A stretch of DNA of 63,847 bases, filler included. It is 4 parts of 4 records of this genome, joined end to end, with 100 filler letters (N's around TTAATTAATTAA, not from the genome) between each part and the next. Parts side by side here need not be neighbours in the genome. Positions count along the whole stretch, not along the records: positions 1 to 29,622 come from DRR723986_3476; 3 more parts are not named here. One strand, given 5' to 3'. This document shows, piece after piece, positions 6,868-21,583 of this stretch (positions within the stretch are counted from its first letter, which is position 1; each line of letters starts with the position of its first letter). The position numbers and the translations under genes were made by a program. Under the pieces are notes generated by a model that was not told where the DNA came from, made no database searches, and saw nothing but the letters and a program-made list of their open reading frames with translations.

Positions 6868-7944
6868 CTAGTTGTCGCCGAAGTACTTCTTACGCAGATC
6901 ATCGATCAGCCCGTCTTCCTGGGCGCCGACCACTTCTTTGGTCATCTCCCGTCTCAACGGACTTCCATGCGGAAGTCCGAAGCCGTATTTCTCTGGCTGG
7001 AAGATTGGACCAACAACCTTGAGCTCTCGCTGCGGGTTGCGGTGCAGGTAATATTCCAATACCGGGGCATCGCCGATAATCGCTTCCACCCACCCCCTAT
7101 CGAGTGCATCAACCGAGGCCTGGATATTTTTGGTGGAAATGGATGTGATGATTGAATCGTGCGTGAATTCCTCGGCACTACTGCCTTGGGCGACGGCAAC
7201 CGTCTTGCCTTGCAGATCGGAGACGTTGTGGACGGTTCCCGTGATTGAAAGGCTGGTCATCACGCTGGTCACCGAAGAGGTGACATAGGCCATGACCGCA
7301 ATGCCGCAAACAAGCCAGAGGGCTTGCCAGATGCGCCCGACCCAGCCGAACAGGTTTTTGCGCTTGGGCGACTTGCCCGAGGTGACGACGGACATCACGG
7401 AATAGAAGCTTTCGGCAACACCCTCGGTCCAGCGTTCGGGAAAGTCCTTGTCAAACCTGCGATCAAAAACGGTCATTCCGATGGTTGAAATTAGAATAAT
7501 GAATACCAACCAGCCATAGGCCTTCAGGTAACCCGCATCATGCAAACCTTCGATCAGTCCCCGGAAACCAACGTGCGGTGTCTCGCTCACCATGATGCGC
7601 AACCCTGCATCGAACCAGGGCTGTGTGAAATCGAAACGGGCAGCACGTTTTTCGGTAATGGTCAGATTGGTAACTGCAAGATCGACTTCTTCGGCTGAAA
7701 CCGCATCGACCAGCTGTCCGACCGTGTCGTATGGTTTGTAGGTGTATCCCACGCCAATTTCGCCGGCAATATATTCCCACAAATCGACTGCCATGCCGGT
7801 GACTTCCTCGCCTTCAATCATGACAAAGGGAGGGCTTTCGTGGACGCCGACAACAATCTGCGTGGTCTCCGGAGCCGGATCCTGTGCATCGGCGAATGAG
7901 GAGAAGCTGAAGAAAACGAAAAGTGCAGCGAGGAAGCGCAGCAT
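6868..7944 (-). CDS. Prokaryotic ionotropic glutamate-receptor-like channel (SBP family 3 domain split by TM-pore-TM)
   Basis: Signal peptide, S1 lobe (PPFV, LTITEKR, DFTQPW), M1, pore helix (ESFYSVMSVVT), M2, S2 lobe (DLQGKTVAV.GSS, GDAPVLEY, YGFGL). Confidence 0.85.
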   Translation of the reverse strand: MLRFLAALFVFFSFSSFADAQDPAPETTQIVVGVHESPPFVMIEGEEVTGMAVDLWEYIAGEIGVGYTYKPYDTVGQLVDAVSAEEVDLAVTNLTITEKRAARFDFTQPWFDAGLRIMVSETPHVGFRGLIEGLHDAGYLKAYGWLVFIILISTIGMTVFDRRFDKDFPERWTEGVAESFYSVMSVVTSGKSPKRKNLFGWVGRIWQALWLVCGIAVMAYVTSSVTSVMTSLSITGTVHNVSDLQGKTVAVAQGSSAEEFTHDSIITSISTKNIQASVDALDRGWVEAIIGDAPVLEYYLHRNPQRELKVVGPIFQPEKYGFGLPHGSPLRREMTKEVVGAQEDGLIDDLRKKYFGDN

Positions 7945-8574: not shown

Positions 8575-9309
8575 GTGAGCAAGAACAGCCATTTGTCGCC
8601 ACAGCCTTTATACAAGCGTGCAGAAGTCGAAATGACAAATCGCATCGCCACTGGCACCTGGTCGCCAGGCGAAGTGCTGCCAAACGAGTTTGTGCTCGCT
8701 GAAGAATTTGGAGTAAGCCAGGGCACCATCAGAAAAGCCCTCGTTGCAATGGAAAAACGTGGGCTCCTGGCGCGAAGCCCGGGACGTGGAACTATTGTTT
8801 CCAGAACCACGCAGGAAGAGGCCCTTTATTCGTTTTTCCGGCTAAGGAACGAAAACGGGGATTTGGTGATCCCTCATCCCGTCAAGGAGACTGTAAAACT
8901 CAGAGCGTCCACCAAGCGGGAAAGAAAATACCTTGGTGAAGACTGCAAGAAGGTGATGCAGCTCTCTCGGGTCAGAGAGAATGAGCATCGGCCCTTTGCA
9001 CTGGAGGAGATGAGTTTTGATGCCTCCGTCTGCAGTGGCCTTCCGGACGATCTTCCCTTACCGCCCTCACTCTACCCCTATTTGCACGAACGGTTTGGAA
9101 TAGCCGTCATGCATGTCGACGAGTCGATTTCGGCAACGGTGGCGGACGAGGGAGCTGCAAGCACGCTCGCAGTCGAAGTTGGAATGCCGCTTCTGAAAGT
9201 CGTGCGAGTTGCCTACGACCTCGCCGATCGGGTGGTGGAGTTGAGAGAGAGCCTCTACAGAACAGATTTTGCGACCTATCAGATAACGCTTTCGAGATCC
9301 GAAGGTTGA
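8575..9309 (+). CDS. GntR-family (HutC/UTRA subfamily) transcriptional regulator
   Basis: wHTH LPNEFVLAEEFGVSQGTIRKAL..GRGT plus C-terminal UTRA-like domain (SLYPYLHERFGI, VELRES). Confidence 0.92.
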   Translation: MSKNSHLSPQPLYKRAEVEMTNRIATGTWSPGEVLPNEFVLAEEFGVSQGTIRKALVAMEKRGLLARSPGRGTIVSRTTQEEALYSFFRLRNENGDLVIPHPVKETVKLRASTKRERKYLGEDCKKVMQLSRVRENEHRPFALEEMSFDASVCSGLPDDLPLPPSLYPYLHERFGIAVMHVDESISATVADEGAASTLAVEVGMPLLKVVRVAYDLADRVVELRESLYRTDFATYQITLSRSEG

Positions 9310-9381: not shown

Positions 9382-10404
9382 TTATGAAAGCTTGAGCCAG
9401 ATTATCGCAAAGCAGGCAATAAATCCGGTTTCCAGAACAATCAGAGCAACCGACTGTGGCGGGATTTCCCTGAATTTCCGCAGCTCTGTCTTGACCCCCA
9501 CCGCTGCAATTGCTGTCAACATCGCCCATTTGGACAGGAATACTGCAGCGCTCTGAACTGCGGCCGGCAACAGGCCAAACGAATTGGCTATCACCAGCAA
9601 CAGGAAAGCGAGCACGAAACCGGGGATAAGGGGCGGTCTCTTTGCCTGGCCATCTGACGTTTCATGTGCGACGCGCAGCGCCAGTGTGAGCAGAAGAACG
9701 AATGGCGCAAGCATGGACACTCGGATCAACTTCACCGTTGTTGCGGTTTCTCCTGTCGCATCCGAAACACCGAACCCCGCCCCGACGACCTGGGCCACGT
9801 CGTGGATGGTTGCGCCAAGAAATATGCCGGATTGCATTTCATCGAAATTCAGGACGGAGGCGAGCAGGGGATAGCCGATCATGGCCAATGTGCTCAGAAG
9901 GGTAACACTGAAGACAGTGAAGCCGAGGTTCCGCTCCGAAAACTCATTCTTTGGCAGAACCGCTGCAATTGCCATTGCCGCAGAAGCGCCGCAGATCGAC
10001 ACCGCGCCGGCAGTCAAGATCGCAAGTCTCCAGCCGCGGCCCAAAAGACGCGAAGCGGCATAGCCAAACACAAGGGTCGCCAGCAATCCTGAGACAACCA
10101 GCAGAACGACCGGCCAGCCAAGGTCGACGAAAGCGTCAAACCCGATGCGTGCTCCGAGAAGTGCAACGGCAATTCTCAGGATCACCTTGGCTGAAAATCC
10201 GACACCGGCTGCGGCCCGGGACGGTTCCTCCTGAACGAAGTTCATCGTCATCCCGAGCAACAGCGCCATCAACATGGCCGGCGAGCCGTAGTGTTCTGAC
10301 AGGAATTGCGCCGCAAGTGCGATCATGGCGCAGATCAACACGCCCGGAGCCAGGCTTTGGACGCGCGTAATGGTTGCTCGAGAAAACGATGCTTCGGTTT
10401 GCAT
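9382..10404 (-). CDS. YeiH/UPF0324 putative sulfite/sulfate exporter
   Basis: SICGASAA, GATIHDVAQVVGAG and VKLIRV motifs; about 10 TMs; last gene of the suyAB operon. Confidence 0.88.
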   Translation of the reverse strand: MQTEASFSRATITRVQSLAPGVLICAMIALAAQFLSEHYGSPAMLMALLLGMTMNFVQEEPSRAAAGVGFSAKVILRIAVALLGARIGFDAFVDLGWPVVLLVVSGLLATLVFGYAASRLLGRGWRLAILTAGAVSICGASAAMAIAAVLPKNEFSERNLGFTVFSVTLLSTLAMIGYPLLASVLNFDEMQSGIFLGATIHDVAQVVGAGFGVSDATGETATTVKLIRVSMLAPFVLLLTLALRVAHETSDGQAKRPPLIPGFVLAFLLLVIANSFGLLPAAVQSAAVFLSKWAMLTAIAAVGVKTELRKFREIPPQSVALIVLETGFIACFAIIWLKLS

Positions 10405-10422
10405 GGAATCGTCTTGGCCGGC

Positions 10423-11430
10423 TTATTTTGCAACAGGGGTGAGGTCTTCGATCTCACGCAGCAAGTGGTCCGGAATTTCGATACCCTGGACCGATGCAAT
10501 CCGGCGGGCCTCGGTCTTTCCGGAGCCCGGAAGCCGTGTCCCTTCTTGCGAGAGGATCTCTGACAGAAGAGTCTCCAGACGAGAGGCATATCCGCTTCCC
10601 GAAATGTCCGGCCGGATGGCGATTATGGTCTGACCCACGCCCGGAGGGGCGCCGTCGACATCAAAGAAGGAACTGGCTTCAAAGGCGTGGTTCGCTCCAA
10701 TGAGGCTGGCAGACAGTATCTCGACCATCAAGGCAAGGGCTGCGCCCTTTGCGTCCCCTAGCGGTATCATCGTACCTTTCAGGGCTTCGTCAGGATCGGT
10801 TGTCGGATTGCCATCCCGGTTCAAGGCCCACCCTTCAGGGATGGTCTTGCCAGCCTTCGACGCCGCCATCACCTTGCCACGGGCAACTTTTGACAAGGAC
10901 AGGTCGATGACCAGCGGGACACTGCCTTCGCGTGACGTGGCAAAGGCTATGGGATTGGTTCCGAAAACCGGCCGCGAACCTCCCCAGGGCGCCATGGCTC
11001 CGGGCGAATTGGCAACCATCAGGGCGACAAACCCGCGTTCCGCCAACCGCTCGACGTGCACACCGAGCTGACCGCAGTGGTGCGACCGGCGGATACCGGC
11101 GATGGCGATACCCGTCTTGGTCAGCATTTCAGTCAAACCATCAATGGCCGCGTCGATCGCCGGAAAGGCAAATCCATTCCCGGCATCGACAATGAGGCTG
11201 CCGGTAAATGGCCGTGCGACCTGCGGGACCGCATGGCCGTCGACCTTGCCGGACTTCGCCTGCGCCGCATAGGCGGCAACACGCGAAAAGCCGTGCCCCT
11301 TTTGACCGTCGACCTCTGCCGCAACAAGCGCCTTGGCGACAGACGCAGCGTTCGCCGGAGAGACATTGCTGGCAACGAGAGCATCCTGGATTAACGCTTC
11401 AGCCGCCGCGATGCTAAGCAGTTTGGACAT
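10423..11430 (-). CDS. comC: Ldh_2-family oxidoreductase, probable (R)-3-sulfolactate dehydrogenase
   Basis: GHG, SHHCG, GTNPIAF, DLSLS..ARGK and KG motifs; adjacent to slcC and suyAB. Confidence 0.8.
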   Translation of the reverse strand: MSKLLSIAAAEALIQDALVASNVSPANAASVAKALVAAEVDGQKGHGFSRVAAYAAQAKSGKVDGHAVPQVARPFTGSLIVDAGNGFAFPAIDAAIDGLTEMLTKTGIAIAGIRRSHHCGQLGVHVERLAERGFVALMVANSPGAMAPWGGSRPVFGTNPIAFATSREGSVPLVIDLSLSKVARGKVMAASKAGKTIPEGWALNRDGNPTTDPDEALKGTMIPLGDAKGAALALMVEILSASLIGANHAFEASSFFDVDGAPPGVGQTIIAIRPDISGSGYASRLETLLSEILSQEGTRLPGSGKTEARRIASVQGIEIPDHLLREIEDLTPVAK

Positions 11431-11431
11431 T

Positions 11432-12361
11432 CTAGTAATCCTTCAATGCGCGCCGGACATTCTCAACCGTCAGGAAACTGACACGCGTGTTGCCTTCGTC
11501 AGTGACCCCTGCAATGTGCGGGGTGAGAACAAGGTTGGGACATTGGTCAAAAAGGAGCCCGGCTTCGGCCGTGAGCGGTTCGGTTTCGAAAACGTCAAGC
11601 GCGGCCCCGCCGAGCTTGCCGGCCTTGAGCGCGCCGACCAGGGCAGCCTCATCCACGATCCCGCCGCGGGCTGTGTTTATCAATACCGCGCCATTCTTCA
11701 TCTTGCTGATTGCAACGGCATCCAGCATTCCCCGCGTCGTGTCCGTCAACGGCACGTGAAGGCTCAGCACATCGGATTGGCGGATGAGGTCGTCGATTTC
11801 CATTCGCTGGACGTTGTTCCAGGCCGGGTGGTCCGCGGGCAGGAAGGGATCATGGGCGATCACCTGCATGCCAAGGGCTTGCGCGCGGGATGCCACTGCC
11901 CGGGCAATGTCGCCAAAGCCCACCAAACCCATTATGCGGCCTGCAACTTCTCCACCGCGTCCCAGTTCGGACCGTGGCCAGGCACCCTTGATCATCTCCT
12001 GGTTGGAGCTGTAGCTGCGACGAACCAAATTCATTGTGGCACCGATCACATACTCGGCGACCGAGAGTGTATTGGCTCCCGTAGCCGGCAGAACGGCAAT
12101 GTTGCGAGCCTTGCAGGCTGCGAGATCGATGTTGTCCAGTCCAACACCGAGACGTCCCACGGCCTGAAGTCTCTGGGCTGCGTTCAGCATCTCCTGATCT
12201 ACCTGGGTGCGGTTTCGCACAATGACCGCATTGGCTTGCGAGACCGTGGCAAGCATCTTGCCACGGTCGTCAACAAGCGACGGATCATAGGTGACGGCGA
12301 AGTCGCCCCCGAATGTCTCGAGAGCGGCTTCATCCATAAATTCCGTAACCACGATGCGCAT
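11432..12361 (-). CDS. slcC: D-2-hydroxyacid dehydrogenase, probable (S)-3-sulfolactate dehydrogenase
   Basis: EFMDEAA N-terminus, IVRNRTQV, GRLGVGLDNID, PATGANTLSVAEY, INTARG, TPHIAG; context next to comC and suyAB. Confidence 0.82.
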   Translation of the reverse strand: MRIVVTEFMDEAALETFGGDFAVTYDPSLVDDRGKMLATVSQANAVIVRNRTQVDQEMLNAAQRLQAVGRLGVGLDNIDLAACKARNIAVLPATGANTLSVAEYVIGATMNLVRRSYSSNQEMIKGAWPRSELGRGGEVAGRIMGLVGFGDIARAVASRAQALGMQVIAHDPFLPADHPAWNNVQRMEIDDLIRQSDVLSLHVPLTDTTRGMLDAVAISKMKNGAVLINTARGGIVDEAALVGALKAGKLGGAALDVFETEPLTAEAGLLFDQCPNLVLTPHIAGVTDEGNTRVSFLTVENVRRALKDY

Positions 12362-12364
12362 GTG

Positions 12365-13546
12365 TCAGGCCGATCGATACAGCTTGGTCATCGAGAATTC
12401 CCGATGTCCGAGTGCTTCGGAAGCCGTGTTCCGGCCGTTCGCTGTGCGGACGATCATTTCGATCAAGGCATCGCCAGCCTGGTCGATCGTCATTTCGCGG
12501 TTCAGCACCCCGGTCACATCGACATCGATGTGTTCGGACATGGTCCGCAAGGTTCTCGGGTTGCCCGAAATTTTCACGACCGGAATAATCGAGTTGCCGA
12601 TGACGTTGCCCTGACCCGTCGGGAAGGTGTGAATGACGTATCCTGCGGCAGCCATCAGCGTCACGCATTCCGCAGCCGCCGAGGAGGTGTCCATGAAGTA
12701 GAGTCCCGGGCCCTTTTCCGGGGCTTCGGCGGGGCCCATCGCATCGATGTAGGTCGATGTCCGGCCGATTTTCTCCAGATTGCCGAGAGCTTTTTCCTCA
12801 ATCGTGGTCAGGCCGCCGAGGATATTGCCCTTGGTCGGCTGACTGTCCGACAGGTCTGACGTCTTGAAGGGCTCGATAACCTCGTCCTGATAGGCCTGGA
12901 AGATCTTCATGAACTTCTCGCCAGCTTCCGGGGTGGCCGCGCGCTTGACGCAGATATGTTCCGCACCGGTGATCTCTGAGGTTTCACCAAAGCAGCCGTA
13001 TATTCCTTCCGGAAGCAGCTTGTCGTACATGTTGCCGACCGTGGGGCAGGATGACAGACCCGTGGTGGTGTCGCTTTCCCCGCATTTGGTCGAAATCCAC
13101 AAATCGCTGATCGGGCACTCTTCCTTCTGCAGTTCCGTTGCCCATTGAACGAATTCCTTGGCCTTCCAGCTCGCCTGCCGGATGGTCTCGAAATCACCTT
13201 TCTGTTCGATGGAAATTCCGAACACCGGTTTGCCGGTCTTGGCAATGCCGTCGACAACGATGCTCGTCCATTCAGGTTCGATCCCGATCACGACCACAGC
13301 CGCAACATTGGGATTGGCGCCGGTGCCGATGATCGTTCTGAAGTGAAGGTCGAGGTCTTCCCCGAATTGGAGGCGTCCATAGGCATGGGGGATGGCCATG
13401 GTGCCCTTGACGTTATTCGCAACAGCTTCGCACGCTGCATTCGAAATATCGTCGACAGGCAGGATCACAACGTGGTTTCGAACGCCGACACGGCCATTTT
13501 CGCGGCGCCAGGCGTTTACGGTCATCTTGGAAAAATCTTGCGCCAT
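12365..13546 (-). CDS. suyB: (2R)-sulfolactate sulfo-lyase beta subunit (UxaA family)
   Basis: [54 protein letters not shown] and HTFPTGQGN motifs. Confidence 0.9.
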
Positions 13547-13548
13547 GG

Positions 13549-13836
13549 TTACCACCTTTTGGTCTTGCAGTTGTGAACGTGAACGTGGTCGCCGATGGCG
13601 ACATCAGAGATCATTCTGCCGATATCCTCGCCGTATTTGATCACCGTATCGTCGGCCTTCATCGCCTTGAGCGCGACCTTGTGGCCGATCGGAATGTCGG
13701 TATTGGCCTTCAGCTTGAAATCGGAATTGTCTGCGGTGACGACGCAGAGCATTTCCGTGCCGGCTATCAGACCTTCCACGACGACGACACCCACGTTGTC
13801 TTCGTGATCGTGGACTAAGAGTTGCGGTTTGCTCAT
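13549..13836 (-). CDS. suyA: (2R)-sulfolactate sulfo-lyase alpha subunit (SAF domain)
   Basis: [27 protein letters not shown] and [12 protein letters not shown] motifs. Confidence 0.9.
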
Positions 13837-13870
13837 GGGTACCTCCAGTGTGAGTTCTTGAGTATGATTT

Positions 13871-13888
13871 CTTATATTTTATATAAGA
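13871..13888. promoter_or_regulatory. Putative GntR operator upstream of suyA (CTTATATTTTATATAAGA)
   Basis: TTTTATATAAGA (13877-13888) is one mismatch from TCTTATATAAGA; an extra half-site is adjacent. Confidence 0.7.
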
Positions 13889-13929
13889 ATAAAAACGCAG
13901 AATGCCGCTTTTGAGGCTTTTCTGTCCGG

Positions 13930-15042
13930 TTACGGCAACAACGTCGCCCGGAATGGTTGACTGGAACCGGTCAACCCGCGGAGCGCGTCATAGACATCCA
14001 GGGTGGACACCGGATGTTGCATGTTGTGGATCCGGCTTCCCTGACGCGTTGCAAAGACTGCAATCTGCCGCAGTTCTTCGTGGGAAAGGTCAATCAGTCC
14101 GACATCGCGCAGGCGTCGCGGCATTCCGACTTCCTCGTAGAAACTCAGAATGTCGGCCATGAAGGCGTTGTCCCGGCCTTCCAGGGCGAACTGTGCCAGA
14201 AGGCCAACGGCGACCTCTTCTCCATGGAGAATGCCTTTTGCCTGCGGCAGCACGGAAAGAGCCATGCCAATCGCGTGTGCACCGGCAACACCACAGCCCT
14301 CGAAGCCGAGCCCGCTGAGCAATATGTTGGCTTCAACCACCTTTTCCACGGCAGGACTGGTCTGCGTGTTCAAGACGTCACGAACCGCTGCCCCACCATG
14401 TTTTCGCAACACGGTGTAGCAGTGGTCGGCGAGGCAGATTGCCGTCTCGGTGGGCTGGGCGTCGAAGAAGTTGTTCTTGCCCGCAAGCCGCACCTGGTCA
14501 GCTTCGAACTTCGTGGCCAAGGCATCCGCAATTCCGGCACGGAAAAACCGGACCGGCGCTTTCGCAACAACTTCCGTGTCCACAAAGATGGCATCGGGAT
14601 TTGTCGTCAGGAATTTTGGACCGAGGAACTTTCCGTCCTCGTCGTACATGATCGCCAATCGGCTGGTGGGGGAATCGTTCGAAGCGATTGTCGGAGCCAC
14701 GATGACGGGAACACCCGTGTCGATCTTGACGGCCTTGGCAGCATCAATCGCTTTGCCACCGCCAAGACCAATCACGCAATCAAGGTCTTTCGAACGTACT
14801 CGTTCCACCGCAGATGCCACGGCTTGAGGTGAACACTCACCAGCAAAATCGTCGAATGTGACATCAAGGTTGGCGGCTTGCATTGAGCGGCTGATCGTGT
14901 CGCCGTAGTTCGTTTTAACGAACTGGTCGCAGACGATGAGCGGCTTCTGTCCGAAAGGCCGGACGAGTTCGCCGAGATGCTCAAGCAAACCGCTTCCTTG
15001 TTTATAGATCGATGGGAAACCAATCGCGAACATGTACTTCAT
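13930..15042 (-). CDS. Glycerol dehydrogenase (GldA)-family metal-dependent polyol dehydrogenase
   Basis: PSIYKQG, GLGGGKAIDAAK, PTIASNDSPTS, AGIADALATKFE, LSGLGFE..G..AH and HGEEVA motifs. Confidence 0.85.
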   Translation of the reverse strand: MKYMFAIGFPSIYKQGSGLLEHLGELVRPFGQKPLIVCDQFVKTNYGDTISRSMQAANLDVTFDDFAGECSPQAVASAVERVRSKDLDCVIGLGGGKAIDAAKAVKIDTGVPVIVAPTIASNDSPTSRLAIMYDEDGKFLGPKFLTTNPDAIFVDTEVVAKAPVRFFRAGIADALATKFEADQVRLAGKNNFFDAQPTETAICLADHCYTVLRKHGGAAVRDVLNTQTSPAVEKVVEANILLSGLGFEGCGVAGAHAIGMALSVLPQAKGILHGEEVAVGLLAQFALEGRDNAFMADILSFYEEVGMPRRLRDVGLIDLSHEELRQIAVFATRQGSRIHNMQHPVSTLDVYDALRGLTGSSQPFRATLLP

Positions 15043-15051
15043 CCATTTTCA

Positions 15052-15075
15052 GGGACGGGACGAAACGCCCGTCCC
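15052..15075 (-). terminator. GC-rich stem-loop between dctP and the dehydrogenase gene
   Basis: GGGACGGG-N8-CCCGTCCC inverted repeat. Confidence 0.45.
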
Positions 15076-15091
15076 ACTTGCGCTTTGGTTG

Positions 15092-16117
15092 TTACTGGCC
15101 AGCCGCGGCTTTTGCTTCTTCTACGGCCTCGAGCATAACGTTCAGCCATTTGTCGCCATATTTCTCGACGTACCAGTCCTGCATCGCCTGGCGAGCGCCA
15201 AGGAAGGTCTCCCGGTCCTCTTCGGTTGGCGTGTAAATGGTGCCGCCCGCAGCTTCGAAGTCGGCATTCGCACTGGCTTCCACTTCCGCGTTGAATTTCG
15301 TCTGTTCTGCCGCGGCAAACTTGAAGCCGTCCAGAACGACGGTTTTCATCTCGTCGGGAAGGCCGCTCAGCCAGCTGTCGCTCACGAAGTAGTAGCCAAA
15401 CAGGAATGTATGCCGGTCGAGAATGACATTCGTGACCACTTCGTTGAACTTGTTGGACATGATGTCAGGGGTACCGTTCTTGGTGCCATCAACGACGCCG
15501 GTGGACAGTGCGGTATAGAGTTCGCCCCAGGCCACAGGGGTGGCAGAAGCGCCCAGGCTGCTGACGAATTGCTGCTGCAGCGGGGAGCTGATCGTGCGGA
15601 TCTTCATCCCCTTGAGATCGTTTGCGTTATGCACCGGCTTGGTCGTGAAAAAGGAACGCCAGCGACCACCGTCGCTCACGGCGACAAGGCGAGTGTTCGG
15701 CAGCTTTTCCATCACCGCGTCGGTCATGGCATCGCTAAAGGAACCTTCCATGAATTTGTAGGCGACTTCGTCATTCGGCAAGATGTACTGCAGGTCGACA
15801 ACGGCCAGTTCAGGCACGAACGGCGTGACCCCTCCAATGGACACGTGCGCGACTTCAAGCGCTCCTGCGTTCACCTGCTCCATCACTTCCTGGTAGTTGC
15901 CAAGCTGGTTGCCAGGATAGATCTCGACAGCAATACGGCCGTTCGAATTCTCTTCGATATAGGACTTAAGCGACGTGGATCCGACGTAGTCGTCGTTTGC
16001 CATGGTGGCGGGCCCGGCATGGGCGATTTTCATCGTGAAATCCTGGGCCTGGGCGGCGCTAGCCAATCCAAAACCCAACGCAATTGCAGTCACTGCGCTT
16101 TTCAAACCGATCTTCAT
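15092..16117 (-). CDS. dctP: TRAP transporter substrate-binding protein
   Basis: Signal peptide, YPGNQLG, DLKGMKIR and ELYTALSTGVVDG motifs. Confidence 0.93.
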   Translation of the reverse strand: MKIGLKSAVTAIALGFGLASAAQAQDFTMKIAHAGPATMANDDYVGSTSLKSYIEENSNGRIAVEIYPGNQLGNYQEVMEQVNAGALEVAHVSIGGVTPFVPELAVVDLQYILPNDEVAYKFMEGSFSDAMTDAVMEKLPNTRLVAVSDGGRWRSFFTTKPVHNANDLKGMKIRTISSPLQQQFVSSLGASATPVAWGELYTALSTGVVDGTKNGTPDIMSNKFNEVVTNVILDRHTFLFGYYFVSDSWLSGLPDEMKTVVLDGFKFAAAEQTKFNAEVEASANADFEAAGGTIYTPTEEDRETFLGARQAMQDWYVEKYGDKWLNVMLEAVEEAKAAAGQ

Positions 16118-16144
16118 AGTACTCCTCCATTTGAAGATTAGTTG

Positions 16145-17434
16145 TTAGACGGGATAGCCAAGTAGTCTTGGCAGGGCGAGAGAGATGTCTGGGATCAGGG
16201 TGATGGCCAGGATCACCAGGATGTGCACCAGATAAAAAGGCAGCATTGCCCGGACGATTTCCCCCACCCGGAGCTTTGAAACCGCCGCGGATGCGAACAA
16301 GACAAGTCCAAAGGGCGGAGTTGCCAGGCCGATGGTCAGGTTCAGACACATGATGACCGCGAAATGGATGGGGCTGATATCCATGCCCAGCATTGTCGGG
16401 CCCAAGACCGGCCCGACGATCAGAATGGCCGGCCCGGCATCAAGGAACATGCCGACGACAAACAGCACCAGATTGATCAGCAAGAGGAAGAGGATGGGGT
16501 TTTCCGTGATGTCCAGAACCAGGCGCGCAAGGGACTGCGGGATACCGGCGATATTGAGCGCCCAACCGAACAGGGAGGCGGATCCTATCATCAGAAGAAC
16601 AATCGATGAGGATTTCGCCGCTCTCACGAACAGGCCGGGGATTGCACCGGGGGTCAGTGTCCCGCTGACGAGACTGAGAACCAGCGAATAGGCGACCGCC
16701 AGCACGGCTGCTTCCGTCGGCGAGACGATCCCAAGAAGGATACCGCCGAGAATGATGACCGGCGTCATCAACGGGAAGAAGCCTTGAACAATTCCGGTGA
16801 CGGCTTCGTTCCTTGAAGGAAGACCCTCACGTTTGGGGAAGTTGTGCTTCCGCGCGATGAGAGCGGTCATTGCCATAAGGCTGACCCCCATCAGAAGTCC
16901 GGGAACGAGTCCGGCGGCAAAAAGAGCTCCGACCGACACATTCATGATGTATGCGTAGACGATCATGATGATGCTCGGAGGAATGATCGGCCCGATTATC
17001 GAGGACGCAGCGGTGACGGCTGTTGCGAATTTGCGGGTGTAGCCATCCTTCTCCATCGCGGGAATGAGCATCGATCCTAATGCGGTGGTGTCTGCAACGG
17101 CGGAACCGCTCAATCCTGCAAACAGAATGCTCGACAGGATGTTCACATGGGCCAGGCCGCCTCTCAGGTGGCCGACGAGAAGCTTCGAGAACGTCACGAG
17201 CCGGCGGGTGATCTCGCCTGCGTTCATGATTTCCCCGGCCAGAATGAACAGGGGAATTGCAAGCAACGGGAACTGGTTGATACCCGCAAAAAACCGCTGC
17301 AAACCTATCTGCGCCATCACCTGCTTGCCATCGATCACAAACCCGGCAAGCGGTCCGAAGGCGAGGGCGAAGACTATCGGCATGCCCAGCAACGCCGCGA
17401 CGATCGTCAAGCTAACAAACAGTGGCATGATCAT
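16145..17434 (-). CDS. dctM: TRAP transporter large permease
   Basis: FPLLAIPLFILAG, SGSAVAD, IIPPSI, PTEAA and TPPFG motifs. Confidence 0.95.
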   Translation of the reverse strand: MIMPLFVSLTIVAALLGMPIVFALAFGPLAGFVIDGKQVMAQIGLQRFFAGINQFPLLAIPLFILAGEIMNAGEITRRLVTFSKLLVGHLRGGLAHVNILSSILFAGLSGSAVADTTALGSMLIPAMEKDGYTRKFATAVTAASSIIGPIIPPSIIMIVYAYIMNVSVGALFAAGLVPGLLMGVSLMAMTALIARKHNFPKREGLPSRNEAVTGIVQGFFPLMTPVIILGGILLGIVSPTEAAVLAVAYSLVLSLVSGTLTPGAIPGLFVRAAKSSSIVLLMIGSASLFGWALNIAGIPQSLARLVLDITENPILFLLLINLVLFVVGMFLDAGPAILIVGPVLGPTMLGMDISPIHFAVIMCLNLTIGLATPPFGLVLFASAAVSKLRVGEIVRAMLPFYLVHILVILAITLIPDISLALPRLLGYPV

Positions 17435-17940
17435 TCACCCGTCGGCTGGTCTAGGTGAGGAAAAATCGGCCGCAACGCCTGTTCCACGCACAAGGGAACG
17501 ATGAGCAGAAACCCGACAGGAACGGCGAGATAAACATAGCCTTGCTTTATCCAGTCGAGGCTGGGTACGATGCGAGCCATCCCCTGCTTCACAAAGCCGA
17601 AGCTCACCCACACGACCATCACAGCGATAAAACAAACCGCCACATAAACGGCCGTGTTGACCATCTTGGCGAGCGGAGAAGGTAATACGGAGAGCAGCCC
17701 CTCAACAGCGATGTGCCCTTGCCGCATCCCGACCACGAGCCCCAGCAAGGTCATCCAGACCAGCGAGATGAGACACGCGTCATCGCTCCAGGAAAGCGGA
17801 TTGTTCAGGACGTATCTGCACAAGACCGAGACGGTCATGATGACAACGATCACCCCGAGAAGGGACGCGATCGCCGCCGTGCAGACACGCATCAACACCG
17901 AGTTGAGAGCGACGAGCGCCCTGTAAACGTTTGAAGCCAT
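17431..17940 (-). CDS. dctQ: TRAP transporter small permease
   Basis: Four TMs, RYVLNNPLSWSDD, HIAVE; ATGA overlap with dctM. Confidence 0.92.
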   Translation of the reverse strand: MASNVYRALVALNSVLMRVCTAAIASLLGVIVVIMTVSVLCRYVLNNPLSWSDDACLISLVWMTLLGLVVGMRQGHIAVEGLLSVLPSPLAKMVNTAVYVAVCFIAVMVVWVSFGFVKQGMARIVPSLDWIKQGYVYLAVPVGFLLIVPLCVEQALRPIFPHLDQPTGE

Positions 17941-17991
17941 TTCCTCCCCGCGCGCTATTACGCAAAGGCGTGTTTTTTATCGCCTTATGTA

Positions 17992-18003
17992 TCTTATATA
18001 AGA
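17992..18003. promoter_or_regulatory. Putative GntR operator TCTTATATAAGA
   Basis: Perfect 12-bp palindrome in the divergent dctQ/kinase promoter region. Confidence 0.75.
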
Positions 18004-18046
18004 AATAAATTGAATGAACGTCAAGTGTTGAATCTTCAATTTTTAT

Positions 18047-18060
18047 ATCTTATATAAGAT
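18047..18060. promoter_or_regulatory. Putative GntR operator ATCTTATATAAGAT
   Basis: Perfect 14-bp palindrome; second copy in the same divergent promoter. Confidence 0.75.
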
Positions 18061-18112
18061 TGAAATTGCAGTCGTTAAGACCCGCGTTGATAAGGGGTCG
18101 TCGGGAGGTGCG

Positions 18113-19021
18113 GTGGAAATGAAATCACCCGTAGTCGTGTGTGCTGGCATAGTAACGGTCGACGCGGTCTACCTGATAAAGGGCGCTCTTGAGGAGGGGC
18201 TGAAGCACAGGGCTTCGCATTCCTATCTGACCACTGGCGGATGCGCTTTGAACGCCGCACATGCGATTGCCTCTCTCGGCGGTAAGGCGTTTCTTTCGGG
18301 CGTGGTGGGCGATGACATCTTCGGAAAGTTTGTCCGGGATGAACTCAGGAATCTCCGGATCGATGGCCGGTATCTGACCGAGCGGGCAGGAGAGGCGACA
18401 GCGCATTCGGCCGTGCTGGTCGATGTGAACGGCGAACGCACCATCATCAATCATCGCTCTGAGAACCTGTACGAAATCGGCGCCGCCCGGGTCGATTTGC
18501 AAGAGGCTTCCGGCGTCCTGGTCGACACACGCTGGCCAAAAGGGGCTGTGGATCTGGTCGAAGCGGCACGCTCGGTTGGAATTCCCTGTGTTGTCGATGC
18601 GGAGGCTCCGGTGAACCACGCCGCAGAGGCCTTGCGCGGGGCAACTCATGTTGCGTTTTCCGAGCAGGGGCTCGCCGATTTCGCCGGCGGAGCAGACGCG
18701 GATGCGCTTTCCCGTGCCGCCGCGAGCCTCAGGGCATGGGTCTGCGTCACTCGAGGCTCATCCTCCGTCCTTTGTCACGACGGACAAACGCTGTCCGAGG
18801 TGCCCGCGTTCAAGGTGAAAGCCGTTGACACGCTGGGAGCCGGAGACGTTTGGCACGGCGCCTTCACGCTCGCGCTTTGTGAAGGCTATGGCGAATTGGA
18901 GGCTATAAGACGCGCCAACGCTGCGGCCGCGTTGAAGACCACACGAATTGGTGGCGGCTCTCCGCTGCCCTGTAAAAACGAAGTCGAGAATTTTCTAAGG
19001 GAGACTGTTTCATGCCACTGA
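18113..19021 (+). CDS. PfkB-family sugar kinase, sulfofructose kinase (YihV)-like
   Basis: GG.ALNAA, VGDD, GERTIINH, VLVDTRW, HVAFSEQGL and VDTLGAGDVWHGAF motifs resemble E. coli YihV. Confidence 0.85.
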   Translation: MEMKSPVVVCAGIVTVDAVYLIKGALEEGLKHRASHSYLTTGGCALNAAHAIASLGGKAFLSGVVGDDIFGKFVRDELRNLRIDGRYLTERAGEATAHSAVLVDVNGERTIINHRSENLYEIGAARVDLQEASGVLVDTRWPKGAVDLVEAARSVGIPCVVDAEAPVNHAAEALRGATHVAFSEQGLADFAGGADADALSRAAASLRAWVCVTRGSSSVLCHDGQTLSEVPAFKVKAVDTLGAGDVWHGAFTLALCEGYGELEAIRRANAAAALKTTRIGGGSPLPCKNEVENFLRETVSCH

Positions 19022-20052
19022 GCGCTGGAAAATTGTGGGGCATGCGCCGAATGGCCGACGCCAACGGGCTGTTCAAGATGACCGCCGTGGACCAAAGGCC
19101 ACCAATTAAGGCTGCGATTGCCAAACACTACGGAACGGACACGGCTCCGTATGACGATGTGGCTGAATTCAAGCGGTTGCTGATTGAAACACTGCAAGAC
19201 AAATCGACCGCGCTTCTTCTCGATCCTCATTTCGCAATTCCCAGAGGTCTCCCGACCCTGTCGCCAACCAAGGGACTGATTGTGACCCTGGAGGACTCGA
19301 TTTTCGAGGACACGGGCAAAGGCCGCCGGTCCTCGCCGATCGATGATTGGTCCGTCGGCAAAATCAAACGTATGGGCGGTGACGCGGTGAAGGTTCTTGC
19401 CTGGTACCGCCCGGATGCCGATCCGGAGATAAATCGCCACCAGCAGGACTTCACGAAACGGATCGGTGAAGCCTGTTCAAAATACGATATCCCGTTCCTT
19501 TTCGAACTCCTGGTATTCCCGCTCGACTCCGATGTTCACCAGACCAAGGACTACGTCGAGATGCAGGGCAAGCGATCCGATGATGTCCTGAAATCCGTTG
19601 AGGAATTCGCGAAACCGGACTACGGCGTTGATGTCTTCAAGCTCGAAAGCCCTGTAAGCGCGGCTGACGTTCCAGGCGTCGGTGAGGGTGACTGGCAAGC
19701 GGTTCAGCAGATATTCGACGAAATGGGCAGGCTTGCCGGAAGGCCCTGGGTGATGCTTTCTGCCGGCGCCAGCAAACCGGCTTTCCGCAAGATCCTGAAC
19801 CACGCCTATAAAGCCGGCGCTTCCGGCTATCTGGCCGGACGGGCAATCTGGCTGGACGCCTTCGGTCACTTCCCCGACTGGGGCAAGATTCGGGAAGAAC
19901 TCTCGGGCGACGCAGGCACCTACATGGACGATTTGAACGCCCTGACGGATGCAGAAGCAACACCCTGGCACAAGCACGCTGTTTTTGACGGGGAGGGCGA
20001 CGCGTTTTCTCCGGCAGATGCTTCCTTCCGGCACACATACGGAGACATCTGA
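19012..20052 (+). CDS. Class I aldolase, LacD/YihT family (tagatose-bisphosphate / sulfofructose-phosphate aldolase)
   Basis: AVDQR, DAVKVL, DVFKLE (Schiff-base Lys), WVMLSAG and GASGYLAGRAIW motifs. Confidence 0.88.
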   Translation: MPLSAGKLWGMRRMADANGLFKMTAVDQRPPIKAAIAKHYGTDTAPYDDVAEFKRLLIETLQDKSTALLLDPHFAIPRGLPTLSPTKGLIVTLEDSIFEDTGKGRRSSPIDDWSVGKIKRMGGDAVKVLAWYRPDADPEINRHQQDFTKRIGEACSKYDIPFLFELLVFPLDSDVHQTKDYVEMQGKRSDDVLKSVEEFAKPDYGVDVFKLESPVSAADVPGVGEGDWQAVQQIFDEMGRLAGRPWVMLSAGASKPAFRKILNHAYKAGASGYLAGRAIWLDAFGHFPDWGKIREELSGDAGTYMDDLNALTDAEATPWHKHAVFDGEGDAFSPADASFRHTYGDI

Positions 20053-20053
20053 T

Positions 20054-21502
20054 ATGGCCAGCTATGCGAAGTACCTCATCAACGCCAATCTGATCGGCGG
20101 AGATTGGCTCTCTCCAGCTGAGGATCAATCGATCCTCGTCACAAACCCGGCCACCGGGGAAGAACTCGGCCGCGTGCCGGCCTTCGGTGCGGCCGAAACG
20201 ACTGCGGCAATCAATGCGGCGGCTGAAGCCTTTCCTGGATATTCCTCGCTGGATCTGGCCAAGCGCGTGAAGTTGCTGCGTGATCTGCATGACGCCTTGA
20301 TGGACAATCAGGAGCCTTTGGCGGCGTTGCTGACGGCGGAGCAGGGAAAACCCCTGGCAGAATCGCGCGGGGAGATTGCCATCGGCGCGGCCTATATTCT
20401 GTGGTTCGCTGAGGAGGTTCGCCGCACCAAGGGCGAGGTCGTTCCTTCCCCCGTCAACGGGCGCCAGCTTCTGGTGACGCATCACCCTGTCGGTGTCGTT
20501 GCAGCCATCACGCCCTGGAATTTTCCGTCCTCAATGCTTGCTCGCAAACTGGGTCCGGCACTCGCCGCAGGATGCACTACGGTCGTGAAACCCGCATCGC
20601 TGACCCCCTATTCCGCGCTTGCCTGGGGTAAACTTGCCGAAGAGGTCGGTTACCCGGCGGGCGTCATCAACATTGTCACCGGGTCTGCCCGGCAGATCGG
20701 CGGTGCAATCATGACCGACCCGCGTGTGCGCAAGGTCACTTTCACCGGTTCGACCGAAGTCGGAAAAGAACTGATCCGGCAATCCGCCGATACCGTGAAG
20801 AAAGTGTCGATGGAACTTGGCGGCAACGCTCCGTTTATCGTTTTTGATGACGCTGATCTCGACAAGGCCGTTCAAGGGGCGATGATCGCAAAGTACCGCA
20901 ACTCGGGGCAAACCTGTGTATGCGCCAATCGTTTCTACGTTCAGTCGGGCATACATGATGCATTTGTCAAACGGCTGACCGAGGCAACCGAGGCCCTGAA
21001 GGTTGGCGCAGGAGCCGAGGCGGGCGTTGAACAAGGCCCGCTGGTGGATCAGTCTGCATTCGACAAGGTCAAGGAGCTGATTGACGACGCCGTTTCAAAC
21101 GGTGCGACCGTCGAGACGGGCGGGAAGGGACATGCCCTTGGTGGAACATGGTTCGAACCGACGGTCCTCTCCGGCATCAAGACGAGGATGAGCATCGCCC
21201 GTGAGGAGATCTTCGGGCCGGTATCTGCAATTTTCCGCTTCGATACGGAAGAAGAGGTGGTTGCAGCTGCCAACGACACGGACTTCGGCCTCGCCGCTTA
21301 TGTCTATACCCGGGACCTCGGCCGCACTTTCCGCATGAGCGAAAAGCTGCAGTATGGGCTGATTGGCGTCAATGAAGGCTTGATTACGACGGTCGAAGCA
21401 CCTTTCGGCGGATTGAAGTCCAGCGGCCTTAGCAAGGAAGGTGGCAGCCAGGGCATCCTGGATTACTTCGACACGAAATACACCTGCGTTGGTGGAATTT
21501 GA
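20054..21502 (+). CDS. SSADH-family NAD(P)-dependent aldehyde dehydrogenase, probable 3-sulfolactaldehyde dehydrogenase
   Basis: ITPWNFP, FTGSTEVG, MELGGNAP, NSGQTCVC and EEIFGP motifs. The SLA dehydrogenase role is inferred from context. Confidence 0.85.
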   Translation: MASYAKYLINANLIGGDWLSPAEDQSILVTNPATGEELGRVPAFGAAETTAAINAAAEAFPGYSSLDLAKRVKLLRDLHDALMDNQEPLAALLTAEQGKPLAESRGEIAIGAAYILWFAEEVRRTKGEVVPSPVNGRQLLVTHHPVGVVAAITPWNFPSSMLARKLGPALAAGCTTVVKPASLTPYSALAWGKLAEEVGYPAGVINIVTGSARQIGGAIMTDPRVRKVTFTGSTEVGKELIRQSADTVKKVSMELGGNAPFIVFDDADLDKAVQGAMIAKYRNSGQTCVCANRFYVQSGIHDAFVKRLTEATEALKVGAGAEAGVEQGPLVDQSAFDKVKELIDDAVSNGATVETGGKGHALGGTWFEPTVLSGIKTRMSIAREEIFGPVSAIFRFDTEEEVVAAANDTDFGLAAYVYTRDLGRTFRMSEKLQYGLIGVNEGLITTVEAPFGGLKSSGLSKEGGSQGILDYFDTKYTCVGGI

Positions 21503-21560: not shown

Positions 21561-21583
21561 TCCCCTGGCCGACTGCCAGGGGA
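21561..21583 (+). terminator. Stem-loop downstream of the aldehyde dehydrogenase
   Basis: TCCCCTGGC-N5-GCCAGGGGA inverted repeat. Confidence 0.5.

Follow-up and report, generated by a model that had tools for sequence, protein, structure and literature searches.

A GldA-family dehydrogenase gene stands where a sulfoquinovosidase and an SQ isomerase would be expected in a predicted sulfosugar cluster of a marine Roseibium, and its product probably serves as the entry enzyme by forming the sulfoketose. The evidence consists of the family and clade membership of the enzyme, the conservation of its catalytic residues, the gene order, and an either/or distribution with SQ isomerases in related clusters. 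That the dehydrogenase and the TRAP transporter encoded beside it form an entry module delivering sulfofructose from a free sulfo-hexitol, a substrate that we infer, is a plausible reading to which we give slightly less than an even chance.

Organization of the gene cluster

The features of the cluster are given in Table 1; the window is the whole 63.8-kb stretch of DNA that was analysed. The gldA-like gene belongs to a single minus-strand operon with the order dctQ-dctM-dctP-gldA-suyA-suyB-2HADH-Ldh_2-exporter, from which the kinase, aldolase and aldehyde dehydrogenase genes diverge. As an earlier, sequence-only reading of this DNA had stated, a GldA-family enzyme follows dctP; the distance is 49 nt. 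In this gap a G+C-rich 8-bp hairpin can be read from the sequence at positions 15052 to 15075 (minus strand). The translation start of gldA may be M4 at 15033 rather than the codon at 15042, because a 97%-identical relative has 367 aa.

Table 1. Positions of the features discussed, along the whole window
Feature	Position	Strand	Description
GntR/UTRA-family regulator	8575..9309	+	Pfam GntR + UTRA; probable cluster regulator
YeiH-like membrane protein (Cons_hypoth698)	9382..10404	-	Pfam PF03601, 212 bits
Ldh_2-family dehydrogenase, ComC-like	10423..11430	-	Pfam PF02615, 314 bits
D-2-hydroxyacid (3-phosphoglycerate) dehydrogenase-like	11432..12361	-	Pfam 2-Hacid_dh(_C); PDB matches are phosphoglycerate dehydrogenases
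SuyB-like large subunit, split UxaA-family lyase	12365..13555	-	Pfam GD_AH_second + GD_AH_C; 396 aa
SuyA-like small subunit (UxaA-family N-terminal domain)	13549..13836	-	95 aa, overlaps suyB start
gldA-like ORF (GldA-family dehydrogenase)	13930..15042	-	370 aa; focal gene, host a marine Roseibium
DctP, TRAP solute-binding protein, type B (GldA-linked)	15092..16117	-	Pfam DctP, 208 bits
DctM, TRAP large permease	16145..17434	-	Pfam DctM, 380 bits
DctQ, TRAP small permease	17431..17940	-	Pfam DctQ, 80.9 bits
PfkB-family kinase, YihV-like	18113..19021	+	top PDB match 7ag6
Class I DeoC/LacD-family aldolase	19012..20052	+	NCBIfam PRK12858, 339 bits (cut-off 184)
GabD/SSADH-like aldehyde dehydrogenase	20054..21502	+	Pfam Aldedh, 544 bits
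Terminator-like hairpin, kinase operon end	21561..21583	+	9-bp stem, 7 G-C pairs, 5-nt loop, poor T tail

By homology the kinase is predicted to be a YihV-like sulfofructose kinase: its best solved relative is 7ag6, the sulfofructose kinase of E. coli (E 4.1e-44), and over 292 aa it shares 37% identity with YihV of that species. For the aldolase, which we propose to be a sulfofructose-1-phosphate aldolase, the PDB matches were 8tnf (E 1.1e-95), LacD (E about 1e-40) and YihT (E 2.8e-17); at 27% identity to E. coli YihT (E 8e-21) it is much nearer to LacD-type proteins and 8tnf. A literature search on PDB entry 8TNF gave unrelated matches only. The PDB matches of the third gene product are of the SSADH family and include 8c54 (E 2.7e-158); the ORF opens at 19949 with a likely start at 20054, and the enzyme is proposed to be a sulfolactaldehyde dehydrogenase. 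The hairpin that the sequence-only reading had placed at the end of this operon is real and forms the first row of the terminator scan, the total of 15 terminator-like sites in that scan being not above that of shuffles (15.6 +/- 3.4). ORFs past the hairpin are either without a Pfam match or transglutaminase-like.

Of the 507 positions in the galactarate dehydratase model, the SuyB-like ORF on the other strand covers 106-491, which means that it lacks the N-terminal domain. The SuyA-like ORF has no Pfam match, has the N-terminal domain of altronate hydrolase as its top PDB match (3k3s, E 1.7e-10) and is 87% identical to its counterpart in metagenome locus L037. Together these ORFs have the subunit architecture of a split UxaA-family sulfolactate sulfo-lyase, and they may have its activity. 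The top NCBIfam model for the Ldh_2 protein was L-sulfolactate dehydrogenase (NF040650), with 180.7 bits under a cut-off of 500. The D-2-hydroxyacid dehydrogenase-like enzyme is probably a second sulfolactate dehydrogenase; among the 11 other aldolase loci, seven (L018-L020 and L022-L025) encode homologues with 50-57% identity. In line with work on SlcC and ComC of Chromohalobacter, these two enzymes would racemise sulfolactate via sulfopyruvate. The YeiH-like protein, a probable sulfite/sulfonate exporter, is kept after comC in L037 (73% identity), and homologues of the GntR/UTRA regulator (52-67% identity) adjoin the GldA-type clusters L037, L038 and L040.

Family and clade of the dehydrogenase

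The gldA product scored 404.4 bits on the NCBIfam model "glycerol dehydrogenase" (NF006941, cut-off 336) and 111.9 bits on Pfam PF00465 (cut-off 31.3), and it also matched PF13685. Its closest solved structure is T. maritima GldA 1kq3 (E 8.9e-79), and it is 37% identical to E. coli GldA over 348 aa. For B. stearothermophilus GldA, a review names Asp173, His256 and His274 as zinc ligands, Asp39, Asp100, Ser127 and Leu129 as NAD contacts and Phe247 as a substrate contact. In an alignment of 32 sequences of the clade described below, D39, D100, D173, F247, H256 and H273 (corresponding to H274) were invariant and S127 and L129 were conserved in at least 90%; the zinc-ligand positions D173, H256 and H273 align to those of solved GldAs. 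Family membership and these catalytic residues mark the product as a GldA-fold dehydrogenase that depends on zinc and NAD+. Its AlphaFold model is confident (mean pLDDT 91.5).

Among 199 aligned sequences the protein fell into a separate clade of 70 members (split support 1.0), all of which carry the signature C250-V252-R337, while none of the 129 others does. The clade-specific changes lie in the beta7-beta8 hairpin (G137, F139, G141 and P142), which is reported to be flexible and located between the two domains, and immediately past F247. R128 was considered as a clade-specific cationic residue and rejected, nearly all of the 120 homologues listed carrying it. The clade shares fold, subfamily, zinc ligands, nicotinamide contacts, D39 and F247 with the GldAs of E. 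coli (b3945), B. stearothermophilus (1JQ5/1JQA) and T. maritima (1kq3), and the same chemistry would be expected, in which a terminal 1,2-diol is oxidised at its secondary hydroxyl, but the clade differs from them in its signature in the beta7-beta8 hairpin, past F247 and at R337.

The clade is rare among species representatives. The only carrier in a class sample of 401 genomes was the sister genome described below (next best 41% identity), which was also the only one in a sample of 81 relatives; further samples of 4, 22 and 401 genomes contained none, and a tblastn search of plasmids gave no GldA above 47% identity. Cultured carriers found by protein search are Roseibium sp. FZY0029, Paracoccus onchidii Z330, Litorisediminicola beolgyonensis and Oceanidesulfovibrio marinus.

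Searches for a glycosidase, a mutarotase and an isomerase

The sequence-only reading had seen no glycosidase, mutarotase or isomerase in the cluster, and tblastn searches of the whole window bear this out. E. coli YihQ, YihR and YihS gave no match at E<=1, nor did the cluster-linked GH31, a GH188-like GFO protein, a mutarotase or the AGE-family protein of the sister genome. SftI-like isomerase and RpiB queries gave short chance-level matches only (E 0.06-0.96), and a stricter scan likewise gave nothing.

Whole-genome searches were made in Roseibium sp. FZY0029, a 97%-identical sister genome used in place of the window's own genome. It contains no isomerase of the SftI/SqvD/FucI type, as NF048012, PF02952 and the L018 isomerase query were all unmatched. 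Its sole AGE-family (PF07221) protein, encoded among capsule genes, shares 23% identity with YihS across 166 aa, and its GH31 protein scored 150 bits on the YihQ-type model, under a cut-off of 553. A GH188-like sulfoquinovosidase candidate is present in a separate, sulfo-SMO-like cluster that does not include gldA. This candidate would give the cell a means of releasing SQ and glycerol. The sister genome has one Dak1 kinase gene, which, like the GH188-like gene, is on a contig other than that of gldA. It also has a single histidinol-dehydrogenase-family gene, and therefore no hpsN.

Two types of TRAP transporter

The DctP proteins of the GldA-linked group (type B) are 57-88% identical to each other and 29-40% identical to those of the sulfoquinovosidase-linked group (type A). 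In the sister genome, the sulfo-SMO-like cluster encodes a type-A DctP, which is 78-89% identical to the sulfoquinovosidase-linked DctPs and only 34% identical to the window DctP. The presence of two sulfosugar TRAP types in one genome argues for two substrates. No ligand can be transferred to the window DctP, since it has no close relative among solved structures (best E 1.4e-37). Its match to the DHPS-binding TRAP protein BwHpsK (24GG/24GH) was about 110 bits (E about 1e-30), and RpHpsK was not in the best 60 of the 83 DctP matches at E<=1e-10; the network of the HpsK paper groups proteins at about 40% identity. By these comparisons, the window DctP is not an HpsK orthologue.

Gene neighbourhoods of clade members

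Eight metagenome loci encode a GldA of at least 47% identity with the signature, and all eight show a sulfonate linkage. They were counted as seven lineages because the GldAs of L038 and L039 are identical; the window brings the number of clade lineages with readable context to eight. In contrast to other GldAs, clade members are found with sulfosugar genes and TRAP genes: dctQMP of the same type lies directly upstream of gldA in seven of the eight lineages, and no sulfoquinovosidase, mutarotase or dihydroxyacetone kinase gene was found near gldA in any of them. The kinase and aldolase genes are beside gldA in three lineages, suyAB in two, and split transketolase plus RpiB genes in three others (L041, L042 and L044). 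L037, where gldA adjoins suyAB, has no TRAP gene within 2.6 kb upstream, and L038 has dctP-gldA-kinase-aldolase on a single strand, without suyAB. An acylating sulfoacetaldehyde-dehydrogenase-like gene is present in L042 and L044 and a succinyl-CoA-ligase-like pair in L042, and the transketolase-type loci contain no C3-sulfonate genes. None of the other 72 loci has a type-B TRAP or the signature, the latter being readable in 71. The order of steps does not follow from gene adjacency, and the RpiB-like gene product of the transketolase-type loci could in principle isomerise SQ.

The expectation that homologous clusters would carry gldA instead of an isomerase held among loci with an aldolase of at least 58% identity. 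An SftI-like isomerase gene (called with NF048012 at 258 bits, under its cut-off of 700) is present and gldA absent in 7 of 7 alphaproteobacterial loci, whereas 4 of 4 gldA loci lack an SftI-like gene. In related aldolase clusters, gldA and the SftI-like isomerase therefore have an either/or distribution. Together with the sulfo-TK-like context and the searches in the sister genome, this supports one part of the sequence-only reading, the claim that the dehydrogenase stands in for sulfoquinovosidase and isomerase.

Proposed pathway and alternative explanations

We infer the following pathway, its substrate, the direction of the dehydrogenase reaction and every enzymatic step included. The type-B TRAP transporter would import a C6 sulfonate that is free rather than glycosidic, the likeliest candidate being an open-chain 6-deoxy-6-sulfo-hexitol. 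The terminal 1,2-diol of this compound would be bound by the zinc of the dehydrogenase, and transfer of the C2 hydride to NAD+ would give a 2-ketose, 6-deoxy-6-sulfofructose (SF) or a C5 epimer. After phosphorylation at C1 by the YihV-like kinase, the LacD/YihT-like aldolase would yield DHAP and sulfolactaldehyde, and the GabD-like dehydrogenase would form sulfolactate from the latter. Sulfolactate would be inverted via sulfopyruvate by the PGDH-like and ComC-like dehydrogenases, and SuyAB would produce pyruvate and sulfite, the sulfite being exported by the YeiH-like protein. In other lineages the TRAP-dehydrogenase module would feed a split transketolase route to sulfoacetate. Weighing against this reading are the gldA of L037 with no TRAP gene in the 2.6 kb upstream, the RpiB-like gene of the transketolase-type loci, the presence of the PF00465 enzyme SqwF in sulfo-TK clusters, and the GH188-like candidate of the sister genome.

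A free sulfo-hexitol is the most likely source of sulfofructose, and free SQ converted by redox isomerisation a less likely one. A sulfo-hexitol has no known natural source, as no 6-deoxy-6-sulfo-hexitol, sulfo-alditol or SQ-reductase was named in the literature searched. We tentatively suggest, as a possibility that we rate below an even chance by some way, that a hitherto undescribed reduced sulfosugar, such as a free 6-deoxy-6-sulfo-hexitol, occurs naturally in marine and anoxic habitats, where a dedicated TRAP transporter and GldA-clade dehydrogenase convert it to sulfofructose as a portable module plugged into both sulfo-EMP and sulfo-TK pathways. Uptake of free sulfofructose, which the sequence-only reading had listed as an alternative, would leave the dehydrogenase without a role.

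It is also conceivable, if unlikely, that the type-B TRAP transporter imports free SQ and that the GldA-like enzyme converts it to SF with catalytic NAD(H), the C1 aldehyde being reduced and the C2 hydroxyl oxidised via an alditol or an osone, which would replace SqvD or YihS without requiring a new natural substrate. SQ is an abundant known compound, and the either/or distribution with the SftI-like isomerase and the coupling to SF-consuming modules fit equally well. Moreover, SqvD is described as holding open-chain SQ by O1 and O2 on its metal, and the GldA zinc likewise binds a 1,2-dioxygen motif. Glycolaldehyde reductase was the second-ranked NCBIfam model (349.8 bits, under its cut-off of 550), indicating that C1 chemistry occurs in the subfamily. 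However, SQ is mostly glycosidic, yet sulfoquinovosidase and mutarotase genes are near gldA in none of the eight lineages, and in the sister genome SQ already has a route of its own, with the other TRAP type. No GldA-subfamily enzyme is known to act as an isomerase.

DHPS oxidation and glycerol use, the remaining alternatives of the sequence-only reading, are weakened. In the former, which we regard as improbable, the enzyme would interconvert sulfolactaldehyde with DHPS or, as SqwF does, sulfoacetaldehyde with isethionate, either for redox balance or as a way of channelling imported DHPS towards sulfolactate and SuyAB. DHPS has the 1,2-diol of glycerol, the sister genome lacks hpsN, gldA adjoins suyAB in the window and in L037, and the sulfoacetaldehyde-reducing SqwF of sulfo-TK is a PF00465 enzyme. 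Against this, the match to the sulfoacetaldehyde reductase (SarD) model NF050025 was 19.6 bits (cut-off 700), and one clade for C3 and C2 aldehydes is awkward, as sulfoacetaldehyde has no alpha-hydroxyl. In addition, L038 combines dctP and gldA with kinase and aldolase genes without suyAB, the transketolase-type loci have no C3-sulfonate genes, the window DctP is not an HpsK orthologue, and a TRAP transporter carrying DHPS would leave the kinase and aldolase without a source of substrate. DHPS as the main explanation was rejected on these grounds.

Least probable is an ordinary glycerol dehydrogenase consuming the glycerol freed from sulfoquinovosyl glycerol. In its favour, Faecalicatena SQ clusters are reported to hold SQ-induced candidates for both glycerol dehydrogenase and dihydroxyacetone kinase, the sister genome encodes the GH188-like candidate and a single Dak1 kinase, each away from the gldA contig, and the cut-off of the NCBIfam glycerol dehydrogenase subfamily was exceeded. 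However, neither sulfoquinovosidase nor dihydroxyacetone kinase accompanies gldA in any of the eight lineages, and the sister-genome gldA is outside the sulfoquinovosidase-candidate cluster. The clade is set off by a split of support 1.0 and by substitutions near the substrate site, and on the model of the E. coli-type GldA equivalog, NF047954 (L-1,2-propanediol/glycerol dehydrogenase), the protein scored 290.9 bits under a cut-off of 700. The conversion of SQ to SF would still have no enzyme.

Comparison with known pathways

With the sulfo-EMP pathway of E. coli and relatives (YihS, YihV, YihT and YihU/SlaB), the proposed route shares the YihV-like kinase, a class I DeoC/LacD-family aldolase and a GabD-like dehydrogenase. 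It differs in that the window lacks sulfoquinovosidase, mutarotase and isomerase genes, that the aldolase is nearer to LacD and 8tnf than to YihT, that uptake would be by a TRAP transporter, and that SuyAB, encoded in the cluster, would carry the route on to complete desulfonation. The GldA-like enzyme would have the same place in the pathway as SqvD/SftI (FucI family, PF02952) and YihS (AGE family, PF07221), supplying sulfofructose to a kinase or transketolase, but is unrelated to them in sequence and fold; those are plain isomerases, whereas the GldA-like enzyme would be NAD-dependent and its substrate may not be SQ.

The logic of polyol import, C2 oxidation to a ketose, phosphorylation and cleavage would be shared with polyol-to-ketose routes. 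Among these are sorbitol or mannitol 2-dehydrogenase acting with fructokinase, and the conversion of galactitol or D-altritol to tagatose in Agrobacterium. The dehydrogenases of such routes belong to the SDR or MDR families and take neutral polyols as substrates, in contrast to the GldA-fold enzyme and the presumed sulfonated polyol of the window.

The gene sets of L041, L042 and L044 match the sulfo-TK scheme (SqvD, SqwGH, SqwI, SqwD, SqwKL and SqwF) presented in reviews. Unlike that scheme, the three loci have no SqvD, and in its stead carry the TRAP and GldA-like pair and a CRP-family regulator. The primary report on sulfo-TK (Liu et al. 2021) may already tabulate GldA-like genes in sulfo-TK clusters.

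Implications

In the reviews consulted, every sulfoglycolytic route listed starts with an SQ isomerase, and a 2026 environmental survey required SQ isomerase as a marker. Such surveys miss clusters like that of the window because these have no isomerase. If the TRAP transporter and dehydrogenase are a true entry module, there would be either an NAD-dependent entry of SQ or an unknown sulfonated polyol in the marine and anoxic sulfur cycle. Our results suggest a new way for sulfonated sugars to come into metabolism, and perhaps also a new compound.

Gene organization of the cluster

The genes of the window cluster, and the coordinates of other features discussed here, are listed in the table; the functions assigned to the cluster are predicted from homology and gene order. 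The kinase, aldolase and aldehyde dehydrogenase genes are divergent from dctQ, and the hairpin noticed in the sequence-only reading does close this operon. The genes flanking the cluster are unrelated. The aldehyde dehydrogenase ORF opens at 19949, 104 nt within the aldolase gene. Since the aldolase stop codon is followed at once by an ATG (20054), and alignments to solved relatives start near residue 44, the shorter form is likelier and the gene probably starts at 20054. A second hairpin separates dctP from gldA; it may make the transporter segment of the mRNA more stable, or reduce read-through. Elsewhere in the window a 358-aa protein may be a bacterial GluR0-like channel.

Features of the window cluster and of the loci compared with it
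Feature	Location	Strand	Remarks
dctQ, dctM, dctP	window, followed by gldA	-	start of gene order
Hairpin	window 15052-15075	-	perfect, 8 bp, G+C-rich, no T tail; between dctP stop codon and gldA start
gldA	window 13930-15042	-	370-aa ORF
95-aa ORF	window, 3' of gldA	-	matches altronate hydrolase N-terminal domain; predicted SuyAB-like pair with next gene
UxaA-family large subunit	window	-	396 aa, without N-terminal domain
2-hydroxyacid dehydrogenase	window	-	phosphoglycerate-dehydrogenase-like
Ldh_2 enzyme	window	-	top NCBIfam match sulfolactate dehydrogenase, under its cut-off
YeiH-like membrane protein	window	-	end of gldA-side gene row
GntR/UTRA regulator	window, beyond YeiH-like gene
PfkB kinase	window	+	top solved relative E. 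coli sulfofructose kinase 7ag6, E 4.1e-44
Class I DeoC/LacD aldolase	window	+	8tnf E 1.1e-95; LacD about 1e-40; YihT 2.8e-17
GabD-like aldehyde dehydrogenase	window	+	third gene, after kinase and aldolase
358-aa protein	window 6868-7944	-	family 3 solute-binding domain and glutamate-receptor ligand-binding match; weak ligand-gated channel match (27.9 bits, under cut-off 30.8)
Second sulfosugar cluster	sister genome L124 (contig C3:639000-658900), about 9450-19900		outside window
MauG/cytochrome-c-peroxidase-like di-haem protein	L018 7360-9069; L124 17567-19324		about 570-585 aa
Aldolase of L018-L024	~9900-11000 of each locus
gntR-gldA-suyAB-2HADH-comC-yeiH	L037 2639-8289		no TRAP in preceding 2.6 kb
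dctQMP-gldA-kinase-aldolase-gntR	L038/L039		one strand
tauE, gntR, aldehyde dehydrogenase-aldolase-kinase	L040		divergent from dctQMP-gldA
Split transketolase and RpiB	L041, L042, L044		divergent from dctQMP-gldA-crp

Glycosidase and isomerase genes

In tblastn searches of the whole window, E. coli YihQ, YihR and YihS, a cluster-linked GH31, a GH188-like GFO protein, a mutarotase and the AGE-family protein of the sister genome gave no match at E≤1; SftI-like isomerase and RpiB queries gave short chance-level matches only. This confirms the absence of glycosidase, mutarotase and isomerase genes claimed for the cluster from sequence alone. Whole-genome statements are based on the sister genome, Roseibium sp. 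FZY0029, standing in for the window's own; one of its contigs matches the window in gene content and order over 13 genes (96–99% amino-acid identity). The proposed search for yihS and yihQ, run on this genome, yielded a single PF07221 protein, encoded between capsule export genes and folD and sharing 23% identity with YihS over 166 residues, and a single GH31, which adjoins fructuronate reductase and scores 150 bits with the YihQ-type model (cut-off 553). The SftI model NF048012, PF02952 and the SftI-like protein of related clusters had no matches there. The only Dak1 kinase lies on another contig, and there is a single histidinol-dehydrogenase-family gene and therefore no hpsN.

Related aldolase clusters

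Of 401 alphaproteobacterial genomes sampled, 12 have aldolase homologues at E≤1e-40, the sister genome among them. Seven further loci (L018-L024) encode an aldolase at least 58% identical to that of the window. In all seven a kinase and an SftI-like protein adjoin the aldolase and gldA is absent, in line with the suggestion that gldA takes the place of an isomerase. The sole NCBIfam match of the SftI-like proteins is the sulfoquinovose (SQ) isomerase SftI (258 bits, under cut-off), and they match Fucose_iso_C weakly; a review places SqvD/SftI in the FucI family PF02952. A GH188-like GFO/IDH/MocA oxidoreductase is encoded in five of the seven loci, aldose 1-epimerase in three and GH31 in one. 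The four remaining aldolase loci (45–49% identical) have neither an SftI-like gene nor gldA.

L018-L024 are hybrid sulfo-EMP-like clusters combining a YihV-like PfkB kinase, a LacD-like class I aldolase and an SftI/SqvD-like isomerase, often with a GH188-like gene and TRAP. Their aldolase is neither the YihT nor the SqiA of known routes, and the combination is absent from the available text of the sulfoglycolysis reviews.

The dehydrogenase and its clade

The window GldA matches Fe-ADH PF00465 at 111.9 bits and, with 404.4 bits, clears the cut-off of 336 for NF006941, the glycerol dehydrogenase subfamily model. It falls far under the cut-offs of the E. coli-type GldA equivalog (290.9 vs 700) and of the sulfoacetaldehyde reductase model SarD (19.6 vs 700), and shares 37% identity with E. 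coli GldA. Its nearest solved structures are glycerol dehydrogenases (1kq3, E 8.9e-79); residues 10-355 align to 10-355 of the B. stearothermophilus enzyme (1jpu). According to a review, the latter uses D173, H256 and H274 as zinc ligands, D100, S127 and L129 for nicotinamide contacts and F247 for substrate contact, with D39 close to adenosine. In the alignment all eight residues are conserved in the window GldA and its clade.

Of 7999 candidates scored in a protein search, 1710 were homologues at E≤1e-30; after the 97% relative the nearest, mostly marine, are 50–66% identical. In a tree built from 199 of 201 aligned sequences (two under 300 residues left out), 70 form one group with split support 1.0. 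The signature C250-V252-R337 is present in all 70 and in none outside; G137, F139, G141, P142 and G249 are further clade residues. In the predicted structure model, positions 129-144 are a beta-hairpin; according to a structural paper, the GldA beta7-beta8 hairpin is flexible and sits between the two domains, with the active site in the cleft that separates them. Since positions 249-252 directly follow F247, the clade-specific changes are probably grouped around the substrate site.

Gene context of the clade

Scanning metagenomes with the clade alignment gave 522 confirmed loci, of which 80 were kept. The signature was readable in 79 (L091, too short, was dropped; L041 is cut at its C-terminus). 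Eight loci (L037-L044) have at least 47% identity plus the signature, all with sulfonate-related neighbours; neither the window TRAP type nor the signature occurs in the other 72. Because the GldA of L038 and L039 are identical, these represent eight lineages including the window, whose pairwise identity never exceeds 69%.

In L037 gldA (66% identity) lies straight between gntR and suyAB, so that the dehydrogenase can be tied to desulfonation genes instead of a transporter. L043 begins at dctQ, and its divergent side is thus off the contig. The top NCBIfam match of the L042 and L044 aldehyde dehydrogenases is acylating sulfoacetaldehyde dehydrogenase SauS (510 bits, cut-off 600), and in L042 a succinyl-CoA-ligase-like pair is present too. 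Apart from the missing SqvD, the transketolase set of L041, L042 and L044 matches the sulfo-TK scheme as the reviews outline it; one TRAP and dehydrogenase module is therefore coupled with two sulfofructose-cleaving routes that are unrelated to each other. Outside the clade, L087 has a GldA-like gene (41% identity, no signature) followed by a split transketolase with 49–52% identity to the subunits of L042; the locus may represent a distant variant, or else a polyol route that is unrelated.

Two TRAP types

The GldA-linked (type-B) DctPs are 57–88% identical among themselves, those of SftI/GH188-type clusters (type-A) 77–98%, and the two groups share 29–40%. Both types are present in the sister genome. 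Its second cluster encodes a GH188-like GFO/IDH/MocA protein (53% identical to the GH188-like one), GntR, an SsuD-family FMNH2 monooxygenase, an aldo-keto reductase, a type-A TRAP, a MauG-like di-haem protein and a YeiH-like protein. It looks like a putative sulfo-SMO route, as named in an environmental survey's list, with an NAD-dependent sulfoquinovosidase. The di-haem gene adjoins type-A dctP in both EMP-type (L018) and SMO-type (L124) SQ clusters.

Substrate of the dehydrogenase

In the available text of the reviews and the survey, an SQ isomerase heads every sulfoglycolytic route. A literature search of main texts found no paper on sulfo-alditols, SQ reductase or related topics; a paper on Faecalicatena was the only main-text match for sulfoquinovose, glycerol dehydrogenase and TRAP together. 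Both downstream modules need sulfofructose, no other gene supplies it, and GldA-type enzymes make 2-ketoses from terminal 1,2-diols. We infer that the simplest substrate, as proposed in the sequence-only reading, is free 6-deoxy-6-sulfo-hexitol, whose terminal 1,2-diol the window GldA would oxidise to sulfofructose.

The main alternative is that free SQ enters through a cycle of reduction followed by oxidation, both carried out by this enzyme. However, none of the eight lineages has a sulfoquinovosidase or mutarotase and the sister genome has a separate SQ route, which tilts the balance towards a type-B/GldA substrate other than SQ. Oxidation of DHPS is a weaker reading, as DctP is no HpsK orthologue (RpHpsK is not among the best 60 of 83 matches), L038 lacks suyAB and the transketolase loci lack C3-sulfonate genes. 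Glycerol use, also weaker, has a precedent in Faecalicatena, where the paper describes SQ clusters encoding candidate glycerol dehydrogenase and dihydroxyacetone kinase, but neither that kinase nor a sulfoquinovosidase lies beside gldA in any of the eight lineages. The presence of two sulfosugar TRAP types in one organism argues that type-A and type-B carry different compounds.
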